DNA of 64,000 nt from Candidatus Pampinifervens sinense (lineage in GTDB: Bacteria; Aquificota; Aquificia; Aquificales; Aquificaceae): NCBI GenBank assembly GCA_037927135.1, contig JAXSPP010000009.1, positions 15,153 to 79,152 of the forward strand, written 5' to 3'. Shown here one piece after another: positions 46,948-54,523 of this stretch. Within the stretch, counting starts at the first letter, position 1; each line of letters begins with the position of its first letter. The notes under the pieces are model-generated. The model saw only the letters and a list, made by a program, of their open reading frames with translations, made no database searches and had not been told where the DNA came from. Made by a program: the position numbers and the translations under genes.

Positions 46948-47718
46948 TTATAACATATTTTCTTCTGAATTTTTAAGCTTGTGTAAAAGGTGTAAGCCAA
47001 AGTATGCCTTAACAGACCTTACAAGTTTATCGTATTTTTCTCCTATCTGAAGTCTAAAACTTTTTGTTATGGAGTTTTCGGATAGTGGTGGATGGAGCTG
47101 AAAAAGCCTTTCTAAAAAACTGGTATGTTCCTTTTTACCTTCAAGATAAGCCAAATAAAAGGGTAGAATAATATTAAAAAACATCTCTCTTTTTCTTAAA
47201 ATGCCTATACCTTTAAAATCCATTATTCTATTTACGCATTGCCTTGCCTTTTCTGGAGTATCAACCAGCTCTTTTTCTTCTCTTGTTATCTTTGTCAAAA
47301 AATACTCAACCAAACTGGGCAAACTTTCTGCCAACAACACAGAAATTCCTTTTATCCTTCTATCTGGGTAATTTGCCGGACGTATGTTCTTAAAATTCCA
47401 TACACTTTTATCCATCTTCAAGGAAAGGTCAAAGCCTTCCAAAGAACCTTCTCTTAGCTCTATAAAACCAGCACGGTGTAGCAAAGCCTTTTCTATCTTT
47501 TCCCTTTCTTTTAGCTTTTTTATCTCTTTAAAAGGTGTTATCAGCGCAAGCTCCAAAAATTGTGTTTTATTTTTTGGATAACCCAAAGAAAGCATTATTT
47601 CTCTATACAAGGCTTCATCTGCCTCTGCAATCCTAAGGAGATTTTTCATCCTTTGTATTTTCGTCTTAAGCCACCTTTCTCCAAGCTTTTCCAAAAGGCT
47701 TGCATCAATGTTTTTCAT
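46948..47718 (-). CDS. DUF2851-like protein, short form (C-terminal helical part only)
   Basis: LGYPKNK..F..LA, W.F..IRPANYP.RRI, NIILP motifs recalled from DUF2851. Confidence 0.65.
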   Translation of the reverse strand: MKNIDASLLEKLGERWLKTKIQRMKNLLRIAEADEALYREIMLSLGYPKNKTQFLELALITPFKEIKKLKEREKIEKALLHRAGFIELREGSLEGFDLSLKMDKSVWNFKNIRPANYPDRRIKGISVLLAESLPSLVEYFLTKITREEKELVDTPEKARQCVNRIMDFKGIGILRKREMFFNIILPFYLAYLEGKKEHTSFLERLFQLHPPLSENSITKSFRLQIGEKYDKLVRSVKAYFGLHLLHKLKNSEENML

Positions 47719-47771
47719 AAGTATTCATCACGCCATGATGTTTTAAATTCAATATTCTGAGATTCTTTCAT
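47715..47771 (-). pseudogene. 18-codon N-terminal relic of a Schlafen/AlbA_2 domain gene
   Basis: Own translation MKESQNIEFKTSWRDEYL*; starts 3 nt after the MTase stop, and its TGA overlaps the next ATG. Confidence 0.7.
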
Positions 47772-47774
47772 ATC

Positions 47775-51299: not shown

Positions 51300-51346
51300 C
51301 CCTCGTTATATTTTATTAAAGTTTTTTAAATGTAAAGACATGGCAC

Positions 51347-54300
51347 TCAAAGTAAGTATAAAGAGAGTATTACTTCCCCCCTTTCCTTCTCCATACGTTC
51401 TGCCTCTATGTAATGGCCTTTCAAAAGCTCTTCTGGTATTTGGCTTTTCAGTATTCCAATCAGTTTAATCGGGTCCTCCAATATATCTTCCTTGTTTTCA
51501 TCAATAGACTTTAATACCCTTTGGATGGTTCTCTTTGGCAATAGTCCTTCTTCAAGCCTGTTTATGACCAAATTTATATACTCTCTGTGCAGACCATCTG
51601 TAATTTTATCTTGGTTTGCTTTAAGCAAGTTTAATAACCTTCTATTAGACCCTGTTATTCCGCTTTTAACTTCTAAAGATTCTTCATTGATTGCATCCTC
51701 AAAGGCTTTTATGTTCCTTTCAAGAAGTTCGTAATATTTTTGTAATGGTATTTCCTCCCTCTTTTCGTTCTGTTGGCTTTCAAATATTTTTGCCGCAGTT
51801 AGAAAATCTACCTCTTTTACCTCTTTTCCGTCTGCTAAGAAAAACTTCATCAACTTACCTCTTCTAAAGAAGGTCAAAAGAGAACTGTGAGATGCTAAAG
51901 CCTCTATTGATGGAGAAAGAGCCTTTGCAGAACGGGCTTTTTTAGGTAAATTTTTTATCTTTTGGAATAGTGCTTCGTTGTTATTCTTTATATCTTCAAT
52001 AATTCTCAAGTATTTTAGCTCACTTTCCTCCTCCTCTTCCTCTTCAGTTATGGTCTTTTTGGATAGAAGCTTATCAAACAGCTCGTGAGAAGATACGGGT
52101 TCACCCTCTGTTAGTATGGCAGAATTTCCACCAAGCAAAGTTAAAAAGGTTTCTACCTTGGACCGTGCTATGTTTGTAAGTTCAATTTCTGTGTCCGCTT
52201 GCTTGGTAGGGAAAAAGTTAAAGGTGTAGATTTTGTCATGGGGTGTGTCTATGCGGTTTACCCTTCCTACCCTTTGCATAAGCCTTGTTGGGTTCCAAGG
52301 TATGTCGTAGTTTATAACTATGTTTGACCTGTGAAGGCTAACACCTTCAGAAAGCACATCTGTTGATATAAGTATTCTGTATTCATCCCTCTTTTCTCTT
52401 GCTTTTGCAGAAAAATTGTTTATAACATCCTCCATAACTGAAGGAGAAGATTGGCCAGTGAACAAAAGAACCTTTCCTTCAATATGTTTGTCTTCTTCTA
52501 TTTTTTCTGCCAGGTATTCTGCCGTTTCCTTTGATTCGGTAAATATGATTATTTTCCCCTTTTTCAAAAGCTGGTTTTCTTTTAGGTTTTTTAAAAGCTC
52601 CTCAAGCTTTGGGTCTCTTTTTAAAGAATCCCACATGGATTTTATTCTTTTAAGTATATTAAGGTCCCACTCTAAATCCTTTCTAAATTCTGGAATGAAG
52701 TCTTCGCTGTTGTATCTTTCCGCTTTTCCTTCATCAATCAACCTGTGGATTGCTTCATCATCTCCACTTTCCAAAAGCTCAAATATCTTGTTTATATACT
52801 TTTTACTGACATAGACCACACCATTATCATAGTGTTTTATAAACTTCTCATAAGAATTGATAAACCTTTCAATGCTTTTTTTAAAAGCGTAAAAACTGCT
52901 CTCAAGCCTCTTTACAAGCAAAACTTTCATAAAGGATCCCATATTCCTCTGGGATTGAGCCTCCTGTTGTGATATATCACGCTTTAGGTAAAGCATGGGT
53001 GTATAACGTGCATACTTTAACTTTTTAGTTATAAGCTCTACAGTTTCCATAAAAACTTTATCCTCTTCGTCGTTTAACTTATAAAAGATCGGCTTTGGGT
53101 CTTCCACTTCTGGAAATTTTATGTTATTCCTTTTTAAATCTTCTGCAAAATACTTTTCTATTTCGCTTCTTGTCCTTCTTACCATTATGTATTTCAAAAC
53201 CTTGTCCCTAATTTCCTTAGCTACCTCCTTAGCTACCCTAAGATATTCATCATAATTTTCCTGACGGTCTACTTCATCAAGCCTCTTTTGTAGTCTTTTG
53301 AAAAATCTTTCAAGGTCTTTAATTCCCGAAATTGTGCTGTTTTTAGGGTTCTGGAACAGCTTTATCTGATTGAGAATGTCCAAAGGAGTGTTGTTATAAG
53401 GCGTAGCTGATACCAAAATTACCCTTTTGCCTCTACATATCTGCATAAGCTTTTCATAGCTTATGGTGCTTTCATTTCTAAACCTGTGCGATTCATCTAT
53501 AACCACATTTTTATACTCTCTTCTTTTTATCTCTTCCAAGGCTTCGTCAAGCTTACCAGTAGATTCATAATATGCGGGTATGCCAAAGTCGCTAAAAACG
53601 TTGTACCAAGACCCGGGATTGTTCTTGTCAATAAGATTGGGCGGTGCTATAACAATAGTTCTTCCACCAAGCTGTTTTACAAGCATTGCTGTAATATAGG
53701 TTTTACCAAGTCCAACCACATCGGATATGAAGACTCCACCATGCTCTTCTATTATCTTCTTTGCGTTTAAAACCGCCTGTTCTTGGTACTCAAGCCTTTT
53801 AAAATTGGTTGGTTCATACTCCTGGTAAATTCTTTCTAAGCCTTCCAGGTCCTCTTTAAAATATTCATAAAGGAATTTAAGATATAGCTCGTAGGGCGTG
53901 ATATCTTCTTTTAACCATGTCCTTTCTTTTAAGGTTTGCACAAAGTCCTCCGTTACATCAACAGATTCTTTCCACAGCTCTTCAAACCTACTTTTTGCAT
54001 ATTCGTAGTCCGCACGGTCTTTTAACTCTACGTTGAACTCAAGGTTATCTTCCAACCCAGACTCTGTAAAGTTGCTAGAACCAGTAATTACCCTTCCCAC
54101 GTCCCTGTCCCCTTCCTTAAAGGTCATAATATAAACCTTTGCATGAAGCCTTCTGGAAGGGTGGGCTCTTATCTCCAGTTTTCCTTCCCTTATCCACTCA
54201 ATAAACTTACGAACCCCCTCTTCCACTCTGAGATGGTCCTCCGACTGGCTCATATCCTCCTCTATGAACCTTTGAACCTCTTGCTTTACTTCCTTAACAG

Positions 54301-54523
54301 AAAGCAGGTCATAGGTCTTTTTGTCCACTCCCATGCCTACAAGTATTCTTATCTTTTCCGTTTTCTCTAAGGCTTCCCAGAGGGCATAAAAACCGCTTAT
54401 TCTAAAGTAAGCCACGATACAATCAAAGTATTTACAATCCTTTATAAGCTGTTTAAATCTATCTTTTAAAGTTTTTCCTGGTTCATTAACTATAAAGGTT
54501 AAGTCCAGGACGCTCCCCACCAT
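51347..54523 (-). CDS. PLD-nuclease / SNF2-like SF2 helicase fusion
   Basis: LHAKVY...GSSNFT..GL..NLE; SDVVGLGKT, IDESH, SATP, STDVLSEG, YDIPWNPTRLMQRVGRVNR. Confidence 0.92.
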   Translation of the reverse strand: MVGSVLDLTFIVNEPGKTLKDRFKQLIKDCKYFDCIVAYFRISGFYALWEALEKTEKIRILVGMGVDKKTYDLLSVKEVKQEVQRFIEEDMSQSEDHLRVEEGVRKFIEWIREGKLEIRAHPSRRLHAKVYIMTFKEGDRDVGRVITGSSNFTESGLEDNLEFNVELKDRADYEYAKSRFEELWKESVDVTEDFVQTLKERTWLKEDITPYELYLKFLYEYFKEDLEGLERIYQEYEPTNFKRLEYQEQAVLNAKKIIEEHGGVFISDVVGLGKTYITAMLVKQLGGRTIVIAPPNLIDKNNPGSWYNVFSDFGIPAYYESTGKLDEALEEIKRREYKNVVIDESHRFRNESTISYEKLMQICRGKRVILVSATPYNNTPLDILNQIKLFQNPKNSTISGIKDLERFFKRLQKRLDEVDRQENYDEYLRVAKEVAKEIRDKVLKYIMVRRTRSEIEKYFAEDLKRNNIKFPEVEDPKPIFYKLNDEEDKVFMETVELITKKLKYARYTPMLYLKRDISQQEAQSQRNMGSFMKVLLVKRLESSFYAFKKSIERFINSYEKFIKHYDNGVVYVSKKYINKIFELLESGDDEAIHRLIDEGKAERYNSEDFIPEFRKDLEWDLNILKRIKSMWDSLKRDPKLEELLKNLKENQLLKKGKIIIFTESKETAEYLAEKIEEDKHIEGKVLLFTGQSSPSVMEDVINNFSAKAREKRDEYRILISTDVLSEGVSLHRSNIVINYDIPWNPTRLMQRVGRVNRIDTPHDKIYTFNFFPTKQADTEIELTNIARSKVETFLTLLGGNSAILTEGEPVSSHELFDKLLSKKTITEEEEEEESELKYLRIIEDIKNNNEALFQKIKNLPKKARSAKALSPSIEALASHSSLLTFFRRGKLMKFFLADGKEVKEVDFLTAAKIFESQQNEKREEIPLQKYYELLERNIKAFEDAINEESLEVKSGITGSNRRLLNLLKANQDKITDGLHREYINLVINRLEEGLLPKRTIQRVLKSIDENKEDILEDPIKLIGILKSQIPEELLKGHYIEAERMEKERGEVILSLYLL

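Follow-up and report, generated by a model that had tools for sequence, protein, structure and literature searches.

Between uppP and tpiA, the 64,000-nucleotide window of Candidatus Pampinifervens sinense analysed here (contig JAXSPP010000009.1, positions 15,153 to 79,152; coordinates below count from its first letter) carries a compact island encoding a PLD-SNF2 helicase-nuclease, an Eco57I-family N6-adenine DNA methylase and a short protein of the family DUF2851. We think it probable that this island is an acquired, ATP-dependent restriction-modification (RM)-like defence module that follows a split Type III/Type ISP logic, with the DUF2851 protein as an accessory on the methylase side. Judging from the sequences, the gene set is most likely a restriction-like defence against phages.

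An acquired module with a conserved third gene

An open reading frame (ORF) and Pfam scan confirmed what had been noticed when a model read the DNA without database searches (the sequence-only reading below), namely that three AT-rich, co-oriented genes are packed between uppP and tpiA. All ORFs of the island lie on the minus strand, and the gaps are 25 nt between uppP and the helicase gene (counted from ATG 54523), 47 nt between the helicase and methylase genes, 56 nt between the methylase and DUF2851 genes, and 7 nt between the DUF2851 stop codon and the likely tpiA ATG at 46940. The GC content of the island is 0.373 as against 0.445 for the rest of the window, where the lowest value among 207 stretches of the same size outside the island was 0.422; at third codon positions (GC3) the island genes have 0.32-0.38 and tpiA and uppP 0.49-0.56. 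No direct repeats were found flanking the island, nor terminal repeats around it, and no Rfam family was found in 45000-57000. A promoter-like site (TTAAAA, an 18 nt spacer, TATAAT and an upstream TG) lies within the 3' end of the DUF2851 gene, in the region 46940-46976 that also takes in the likely tpiA ATG.

Related loci were collected by scanning a library with one genome per species (genome_contigs) with a 30-sequence DUF2851 alignment. This gave 59 loci, against which the five window proteins were compared by tblastn; a methylase was counted if there was a co-oriented match of at least 300 aa. Their hosts belong to many phyla and include archaea. Full-length short DUF2851 is found in 33 of the 59. 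Where more than 4 kb of upstream sequence was available, a methylase is present in 15 of 16 loci and a helicase in 12 of 16, and in three of the four loci without a helicase (L014, L028 and L038) the methylase lies right where the fetched flank ends. Where more than 8 kb was available, the methylase is present in 13 of 13. The one locus of the 16 without an Eco57I-type methylase, L010, is also without a helicase, and upstream of its DUF2851 gene it carries an HmaB-like methylase and a split HmaC/DUF499 ATPase (30-4189), with two opposite-strand genes in between. Gene-neighbourhood co-occurrence was a check proposed in the sequence-only reading, and the linkage is indeed conserved.

The commonest gene order is helicase-methylase-(cargo)-DUF2851. 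One also finds methylase-DUF2851-helicase (L026 and L049, and L030 and L034 with an incomplete methylase or helicase) and DUF2851-helicase-methylase (L027). No match to tpiA or uppP at E<=1e-5 was found in any of the 59 loci; therefore, the module occupies different chromosomal places. In a maximum-likelihood tree of 35 DUF2851 proteins the phylum labels require 18 changes, with a mean of 18.6 when the labels are shuffled, and thus show no taxonomic clustering. The low GC content of the island, the missing tpiA and uppP at the related loci and the scattered phylum labels together argue for a foreign, horizontally acquired origin. The three genes form one acquired module.

The helicase and the methylase

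The helicase has a single HKD motif at its N-terminus, a central Swi2/Snf2 motor and a C-terminal domain (residues ~871-1058) that can be aligned solely inside the helicase class of the window, defined below. The sequence-only reading had placed a PLD nuclease at the N-terminus, and both the Pfam match to PLDc_2 (2.5e-12, with Helicase_C, SNF2-rel_dom and ResIII) and the motif HAK...GSSN agree with it; the further motifs GLGKT, DESH, SATP and QRVGRVNR are also present. With its PLDc_2 domain and one copy of HAK...GSSN per chain the protein belongs to the PLD/HKD family and is a putative nuclease, and motifs I, II, III and VI, together with profile similarity to solved SNF2 motors, place the protein among the Swi2/Snf2 motors of helicase superfamily 2 (SF2). 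The best match in a PDB profile search was 1z63 (SNF2/Rad54, 2e-24), followed by DDM1 and RapA. PADLOC returned, as its best model, C3a139 'HKD+Snf2' (9e-54), which goes back to a survey of genes accessory to type III CRISPR systems (PMC6546367; here and below, what is said of cited articles refers to excerpts of them), DrmD (3.9e-39) and, covering only residues 539-767, HmaA (4.1e-22). The NCBIfam matches are all under their cut-offs (DrmD 148.8 vs 610). Among the loci, HxK..GSSN, GLGKT, DExH and QxxGRxxR are kept in 15 of 15 full-length helicase homologues.

The methylase belongs to the Eco57I family (Pfam Eco57I 4.6e-29, with MmeI_Mtase and N6_Mtase) and has DPAVGSASF (motif I) at residue 460 and NPPY (motif IV) at 712, so the two motifs are as intact as the sequence-only reading had stated; the catalytic motifs are intact in 19 of 19 relatives as well. 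In PADLOC it matches REase_MTase_IIG PDLC03596 (1.4e-105), this Type IIG model spanning residues 1-424, and partially DrmMI (1.2e-21); the BREX PglX model scores 65 bits vs a cut-off of 500. Sequence matches in the PDB (8c45, the BrxX chains 9ewz/8zek, TaqI) are confined to methylase-core stretches. Region-by-region identities reveal a mosaic, in which the methylase body (residues 184-870) comes in two types, independent of helicase class. The target-recognition domain (TRD) is hypervariable, with 29-70% identity to relatives vs 52-80% for residues 431-870 of the same proteins. In the cultured Desulfurella acetivorans A63, which has an intact Schlafen gene, the methylase frame (L012 4860-8603) is interrupted in the TRD, leaving ORFs 4860-7865 and 7908-8603.

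Behind the TRD follows a C-terminal tail that is 77-91% identical in aligned loci with the window type of methylase body, and ~51% identical in L026. One might take such a tail for a conserved DNA-level element, but this was rejected: identity is ~0.8-1.0 at the first two codon positions and only ~0.4-0.6 at the third. Because third positions vary while the first two hold, the constraint acts on the protein.

The methylase N-terminus tracks the helicase

Helicases of the window's class (the 'close' class) are 53-74% identical to the window protein over the first 870 residues, and divergent ones 26-35%. The N-terminal domain of the methylase could be aligned wherever the helicase is close (7 of 7 loci) and nowhere that it is divergent (0 of 8). 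Across 11 complete systems, the distances between helicases and those between methylase N-termini are strongly correlated (Spearman rho 0.88, Mantel p ~0.0005). The distances of methylase body and DUF2851 give rho 0.48 (p ~0.047, a weak correlation, in a type of test that is inflated by kinship among the rows), and those of helicase and DUF2851 give 0.00. In a quick helicase tree, the window type of N-terminus occupies one side of a branch (Shimodaira-Hasegawa-like approximate likelihood ratio test (SH-aLRT) 92), with 1 change vs a shuffled mean of 5.0. Because these distances co-vary with the helicase, we infer that this domain is what couples the methylase to the helicase; the DUF2851 protein would belong to the body-plus-tail side.

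The window's own copy of this domain is unusual. In a 66-row alignment, E58, R59, D71, K104, the Asp after 104, P113 and D117 are each kept in 61-65 of the 65 rows besides that of the window. The window copy carries E58R, R59H, D71V, K104R, P113E and D117S, and the Asp is deleted. The GSR tripeptide is also missing (a 3-residue deletion), while the remaining methylase is well conserved. A model of residues 1-190 (predicted local distance difference test (pLDDT) 88.3) has no match in the PDB at E<=0.001. Its weak fold matches are led by DHH phosphoesterases (template modelling (TM) score ~0.3) and include the PD-(D/E)xK proteins Cas4 SSO0001 and Hjc (probability 0.44-0.51). The sequence-only reading saw no clear PD-(D/E)xK motif here, and no canonical D...(D/E)xK spacing is visible in the domain.

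These observations bear on a different explanation, in which the methylase family is a bifunctional Type IIG enzyme with its nuclease in the N-terminal domain and the helicase as an auxiliary motor; the site would be dead in the window, and the locus decaying or methylase-only and epigenetic. The Type IIG model that is the best PADLOC match does cover residues 1-424, the near-invariant E58, D71, Asp after K104, P113 and D117 are all replaced or deleted, Cas4 and Hjc are among the weak fold matches, and the deletion of a Schlafen gene (see below) shows an eroding locus. We nevertheless regard this explanation as improbable: there is no significant structural match and the top ones are DHH phosphoesterases, the canonical spacing is not visible, and a domain that tracks the helicase class fits an interaction domain. 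The PLD site, moreover, is intact in the window and in the 15 helicases compared, and the three ORFs are full length.

Under our preferred reading, too, the window copy may be partly decayed, since the Schlafen gene was deleted and the N-terminal family residues were lost, although none of its three reading frames is broken and every catalytic motif is preserved.

A short, all-alpha DUF2851 protein

The last protein of the module matches PF11013 with 46.7 bits (gathering cut-off 25, E 2.9e-12) over profile positions 144-353 of 375, as do 71 of 71 members of the DUF2851 alignment with regard to the family. The assignment made in the sequence-only reading thus holds for the family and not for a full-length domain, the protein being a natural short form without the N-terminal part. 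PADLOC and NCBIfam gave no match for it. A word-indexed search returned 244 cluster representatives at E<=0.001, and the best 120 of the 244 are 217-287 aa long and 48-66% identical; among the matches listed, the sources are Aquificota, Thermodesulfobacteriota, WOR-3, Omnitrophota, Bacteroidota, Caldisericum and archaea. In an exhaustive library clustered at 50% the short family reduces to a handful of representatives, and the other full-length matches among the 150 listed are mostly long forms of ~350-570 aa, along with fragments and a small number of weaker matches that are 230-330 aa long. A resident gene truncated by the island was considered and rejected, because short forms fill the whole listed top 120 and are a family of their own.

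Long forms (about 400-450 aa) share their C-terminal two thirds with the window protein, which aligns with them from their residue ~145-175 onward at 24-38% identity. Y38, G46, N50, N116, P118, R121, G172, R175, P186 and G241 are invariant in both forms. The long forms differ in beginning with a further domain of ~150 aa, in which GPDF, GD(V/I)E(I/V)H and HGH are conserved (P0129-P0270) and which looks like an uncharacterised metal-dependent nuclease or hydrolase domain. The sole annotated long form found, on the Thermomicrobium roseum megaplasmid (24.6% identity), has housekeeping neighbours. Longer, fused forms were not found, although the search is weak evidence on this point, and the phage collection held no match.

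An AlphaFold2 model built from a 71-row alignment (pLDDT 96.5, predicted TM score 0.92) is all-alpha with 12 helices. The best structural E values were 0.39 in the PDB and 0.85 in BFVD. In both libraries the best geometric matches are helix-hairpin-helix (HhH)-GPD enzymes: in the PDB archaeal and Thermotoga Ogg (TM 0.32-0.41, E 0.81-1.9, not significant) and in BFVD a haloviral EndoIII (TM 0.47-0.49 at that E of 0.85, not significant). A glycosylase-like nature is only a lead. Members of the family are basic (medians: pI 9.5, net charge +11) and conserve a GIG hairpin at 170-172, followed by R175; on reading the alignment, no conserved Asp was seen after the hairpin. A PDB sequence search gave nothing below E 0.59, and ESM Atlas no usable feature match, its own model being poor.

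A cargo slot between methylase and DUF2851

Between the methylase and DUF2851 genes lies the stub of a gene that the sequence-only reading had already listed as a lost Schlafen. In its product, 15 of 18 residues are identical to the N-terminus of the Schlafen/AlbA_2 protein of L050, and intact 449-aa AlbA_2+HATPase_c_4 genes stand at the same position in L050 and L012 (D. acetivorans A63); therefore, the Schlafen gene was deleted in the window's lineage. The stop codon of the stub overlaps the DUF2851 start as ATGA, and it is precisely at this start codon that the deletion stops.

In relatives the interval from the methylase stop to DUF2851 holds 0 to 7 co-oriented genes. As identified by Pfam and PADLOC, this cargo consists of known or candidate defence genes (Table 1). 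Seven loci have an empty slot (gap <=350 nt) like the window: L001, L005, L015, L018, L019, L032 and L033. Helicase, methylase and DUF2851 genes thus make up a frame that has room for cargo; in the window this slot is empty because the Schlafen gene has been cut down to 18 codons. Five closely spaced TTGCACA repeats lie right upstream of the DUF2851 start in D. acetivorans A63 (L012 9940-9997), and a similar run of TTGGCGATT-like repeats is found at the same place in L023; these may be an operator.

Isolated copies of the methylase tail also occur. They stand beside cargo or DUF2851, as second copies in L018, L022, L024, L043 and L052 and as copies outside a divergent methylase in L014, L038 and L050. 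They look like scars of recombination between systems, though they may be either such scars or a reusable docking module. The DUF3644/PDC-S19 protein of L038 ends in a similar tail, its residues 337-414 matching the end of Type IIG models.

Short DUF2851 most often has as its direct neighbour an IS200-like Y1/HUH protein with PNH.H and WQRNYYEH motifs, which is absent from the window. Of the 59 loci, 11 have the Y1_Tnp-like gene immediately upstream of DUF2851, and 1 (L014 11303-11884) has it immediately downstream. The methylase homologues P0284, P0296, P0335 and P0341 have PF01797 in precomputed domain lists, which suggests Y1 fusions. That a Y1 gene and a short DUF2851 gene are the two halves of a split long form was rejected by eye, since the long-form motifs are GPDF/GDVEIH/HGH and not HUH.

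One could read the DUF2851 protein, often with the Y1/HUH protein, as a module for mobility or recombination, by which the island is moved or its cargo exchanged, and which takes no part in defence. The Y1 neighbours, the terminal position of DUF2851, the extra tail copies flanking cargo, the scattered phylum labels on the DUF2851 tree and the many matches at contig ends would suit this idea, to which we give very little credence. The window and most loci lack the Y1 gene, there are no terminal repeats around the island, and DUF2851 has no recombinase or transposase family signal; Y1 domains fused to the C-terminus of some methylase homologues fit an effector role, and the long-form DUF2851 of Thermomicrobium sits among housekeeping genes.

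Table 1. Features of the island, its flanks and the loci compared with it (L numbers denote loci; coordinates without an L number refer to the window)
Feature	Position or locus	Strand	Basis or remark
BacA/uppP	54549-55379		flank; Pfam
PLD(HKD)-SNF2 helicase-nuclease	51347..54523	minus	1058 aa from ATG 54523; ORF reaches TTG 54547
Eco57I-family gamma-class N6-adenine DNA methylase with its own TRD	47775..51299	minus	1174 aa; coordinates include the stop codon
Methylase N-terminal domain, residues 1-183	50751..51299	minus	co-varies with helicase class; window copy degenerate
Hypervariable target-recognition region, methylase residues 871-1100	48000..48689	minus	identity comparison
Conserved methylase C-terminal tail, residues 1101-1174	47778..47999	minus	identity comparison
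Stub of deleted Schlafen (AlbA_2) gene	47715..47771	minus	18 codons + stop; match to L050
Short-form DUF2851, all-alpha, basic	46948..47718	minus	256 aa; last gene of module
TIM/tpiA	ORF 46200-47000; likely ATG 46940		flank; Pfam
Extra tail copies (last 23-52 residues)	L018 2127-2243; L022 2720-2875; L052 3270-3416; L024 9212-9319; L043 10757-10825; L014 8197-8343; L038 7798-7914; L050 8454-8570
Cargo: Schlafen-HATPase	L012, L050
Cargo: KwaA+KwaB (Kiwa)	L009
Cargo: short prokaryotic Argonaute (pAgo) + SIR2	L007
Cargo: PDC-M41A/B with DUF5131	L023, L014
Cargo: AAA_13/PDC-S06	L024, L038, L050
Cargo: MNT+HEPN	L017, L014
Cargo: ImmA/IrrE-like M78 + DUF4411	L014, L020, L052
Cargo: Hypoth_Ymh/PD-Lambda-3_B	L014, L050
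Cargo: AriA/GajA-like ATPases	L028, L038, L045
Cargo: PDC-M23A/B	L028
Cargo: DUF3644/PDC-S19	L038
Cargo: DUF3800	L004, L022, L056
Cargo: IS200-like Y1/HUH protein	L002, L003, L008, L016, L021, L024, L029, L041, L053, L054, L057		upstream of DUF2851
Nostoc plasmid context			helix-turn-helix (HTH), methylase, two hypotheticals, helicase
Prevotella nigrescens plasmid context	L066		HTH, helicase, methylase, inverted Eco57I cassettes, invertase
Lactococcus cremoris pJM1F context	L067		helicase, methylase, inverted TRD, invertase

The pair without DUF2851

The sequence-only reading held that helicase-methylase pairs are widespread, and the plasmid collection bears this out. The helicase matches 152 records and the methylase 24; at least 12 of these 24 are among the 31 listed helicase records, and where both are listed the two matches lie within ~7 kb. 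In the Thermus, Allomeiothermus, Parabacteroides and Thermococcus contexts no DUF2851 is annotated. Since the pair occurs on plasmids without it, DUF2851 appears to be a lineage-specific accessory of one sub-branch (one methylase type) and not of the pair in general. Of the three-part RM-like system envisaged in the sequence-only reading, the single acquired module stands, and DUF2851 as a general third component does not.

The P. nigrescens and pJM1F plasmids, which hold mesophilic relatives of the pair, carry inverted partial methylase/TRD cassettes with an Mpi-type invertase (L066 12157-16494 and L067 8763-10230, respectively). By their sequences, these amount to putative specificity shufflons, which PMC9881135 reports for loci of this kind.

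Should DUF2851, then, be regarded as an independent passenger, a single-gene defence or regulatory gene that usually comes to lie at the 3' end of such islands and is one more item of cargo beside a working system of helicase and methylase? The adjoining slot does collect unrelated autonomous systems (Kiwa, pAgo-SIR2, PDC-M41, MNT-HEPN), the plasmid pairs do without DUF2851, in L010 it stands beside another methylation system (HmaB/HmaC), and its co-variation with the helicase is nil. A passenger would, however, hardly be expected to keep a fixed position relative to the methylase while the cargo changes, to be present in every cargo variant, to have a methylase in all but one of the loci with enough upstream sequence, or to stay beside the pair under permuted gene order; nor does any PADLOC model match DUF2851 as a stand-alone system. 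We judge the passenger explanation to be unlikely, and prefer an accessory on the methylase side.

Comparison with known systems

A full match to a characterised system was named in the sequence-only reading as a result that would speak against it. The best PADLOC matches were C3a139 and the Type IIG model, and those to DrmD and DrmMI were partial; by its gene content, the island falls outside Class 1 DISARM, BREX, MANTIS/BR type 2/Hma and Type ISP, as set out below. The stated absence of drmA/drmB and pglZ/brxC was borne out, none being found in Pfam, PADLOC and NCBIfam scans of the island.

Published PLD-SNF2 and Type IIG-like pairs have the same two core proteins in the same adjacency. They differ in being without DUF2851 and, in several cases, in having inverted TRD cassettes with an invertase, or an HTH regulator; their proteins are 26-38% identical to those of the window, and the excerpts report no phage defence for them. 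In Lactococcus lactis pLd8, orf33 is annotated as a PLD+SNF2 protein and orf34 as a Type IIG methylase that lacks a restriction domain; the authors propose the nuclease in orf33 and point to a likeness to DISARM (PMC6098607). The scheme in which the TRD recognises and the PLD-helicase cuts, set out in the sequence-only reading, is thus already in print for pLd8 and is not new. Cj0031-like Type II RM genes likewise adjoin a PLD+SNF gene (PMC9881135), and a Type IIG locus of Prevotella intermedia 17F with an upstream SNF2/RAD54 helicase has been assigned the N6-methyladenine (m6A) motif GGYGAB (PMC5608340).

The closest system that has been studied is MANTIS (also Gao_RL or BREX-related (BR) type 2, and related to Hma). 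Like the island, it combines a PLD-SF2 helicase-nuclease with an N6-adenine methylase and a small accessory. In MANTIS the small MtsB is needed for methylation, and MtsD, related to SauUSI, is a dimer with one PLD site (10.64898/2026.09.23.753747). The defining set of BR type 2 includes a DUF499 AAA+ ATPase, DUF3780, a methylase and an HKD-helicase (PMC12839542); the island lacks the DUF499 ATPase and DUF3780 in Pfam and PADLOC and, therefore, lies outside MANTIS, BR type 2 and Hma. Its methylase is of Eco57I type with its own TRD, and DUF2851 is all-alpha, whereas DUF3780 is alpha+beta (PMC12839542).

What the island has in common with Class 1 DISARM is a PLD part resembling DrmC, an SNF2 part resembling DrmD and a Type IIG-like N6 methylase resembling DrmMI. 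It is not a DISARM locus: DrmA and DrmB (DUF1998) are missing, PLD and SNF2 are fused, and the only DrmA signal in PADLOC is the shared helicase core (3.3e-16). Neither is it BREX, with no PglZ or BrxC/PglY between uppP and tpiA.

The set of nuclease, translocase, gamma-class methylase and TRD resembles Type ISP (LlaGI, LlaBIII) and Type III enzymes. Type ISP enzymes unite an Mrr-like nuclease, translocase, methylase and TRD in a single polypeptide, recognise asymmetric sites and cut in an ATP-dependent manner (PMC3874165). The island is not a Type ISP enzyme in this sense; its functions are split over two ORFs with the 47-nt gap, and its nuclease is a PLD and not Mrr or PD-(D/E)xK. From both types it also differs in its Swi2/Snf2-like motor, the extra DUF2851 gene and the cargo slot.

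Embedded cargo as such is known: RM, BREX and BR loci embed backup effectors (Schlafen-HK-winged HTH, HEPN-MNT, OLD-type ABC ATPases) with core genes on both sides (PMC12839542). The frame here is made of helicase, methylase and DUF2851, and was not found in the main text of PMC12839542 as excerpted.

Proposed mechanism and the weight of the evidence

In the module as we picture it, the Eco57I-type methylase would read a short asymmetric site through its own TRD and mark host adenines. By analogy with SauUSI and MtsD of MANTIS, unmarked sites would recruit or license the PLD-SNF2 protein, probably a dimer that builds one PLD active site, which would translocate and cut. The co-variation described above suggests that coupling to the helicase runs through the methylase's N-terminal domain. 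The DUF2851 protein, with a GIG hairpin resembling a helix-hairpin-helix, most likely binds DNA and, much like MtsB in MANTIS, helps the methylase load or act, or licenses restriction; its gene is also the 3' bookend of the slot that holds backup defence genes in relatives.

A bolder version, which we hold to be possible but doubtful, would make DUF2851 a dedicated DNA-scanning subunit, remotely HhH-GPD-like, of a mobile, cross-phylum and mostly thermophile frame. It would be needed for the methylase to load on DNA or to modify it, or for handing unmodified sites to the PLD-SNF2 nuclease, and DUF2851 together with the methylase tail would form a docking slot that captures, and possibly controls, backup effectors (Schlafen, Kiwa, pAgo-SIR2, HEPN-MNT, OLD-like ATPases).

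Several points weigh against reading the island as a working three-part module. As DUF2851 was the way in to every locus, the census sees one side only and is silent on how often methylases of this type do without it. Many of the loci are metagenome bins, in which binning errors can mimic a cross-phylum spread. The DUF2851/methylase-body correlation is, as said, weak and of an inflatable kind, and the degenerate N-terminal domain in the window means that helicase coupling may be impaired there. The plasmid collection has DUF2851 in 1 record, a long form of 24.6% identity in a non-defence context, and none is annotated beside the pair in the Nostoc, P. nigrescens and L. cremoris contexts. In the island region, promoter-like sites (21 vs 20.9 by chance) and terminator-like sites (10 vs 9.7) show no excess. 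As to DUF2851 itself, Foldseek found no match for the model in the PDB or BFVD at E<=0.001, and in Pfam at E<=10 only DUF2851 recurs across the 71 members, with no HhH family. Because neither a significant fold match nor a Pfam link to HhH exists, a DNA-binding accessory is a guess from charge and one motif.

What the locus family adds

The pair and its reading are known already, as annotations, and so is embedded cargo in BREX and BR loci. The short DUF2851 partner, the co-variation of helicase and methylase N-terminus, and this frame were not found in the searched literature, in keeping with the view of the sequence-only reading that the DUF2851 link was undescribed. A search for 'DUF2851' gave one paper, on an unrelated topic in the part available, and 'PF11013' gave only Plasmodium gene identifiers, judging by the titles.

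Helicase-methylase pairs are common on plasmids and chromosomes and, in the published excerpts, stand as putative annotations, except for one assigned methylation motif (PMC5608340). To these the locus family adds a conserved partner of uncharacterised fold, which is the first genomic-context clue for DUF2851, and domain-level evidence suggesting which part of the methylase talks to the helicase. It is also a clear case, found in nature, of a defence frame in which the cargo of a slot can be exchanged, and it occurs in bacteria and archaea from hot environments. Should methylation or restriction prove to require DUF2851, the protein would be a counterpart of MtsB, the small co-activator in MANTIS, and the principle would reach a second, unrelated family.

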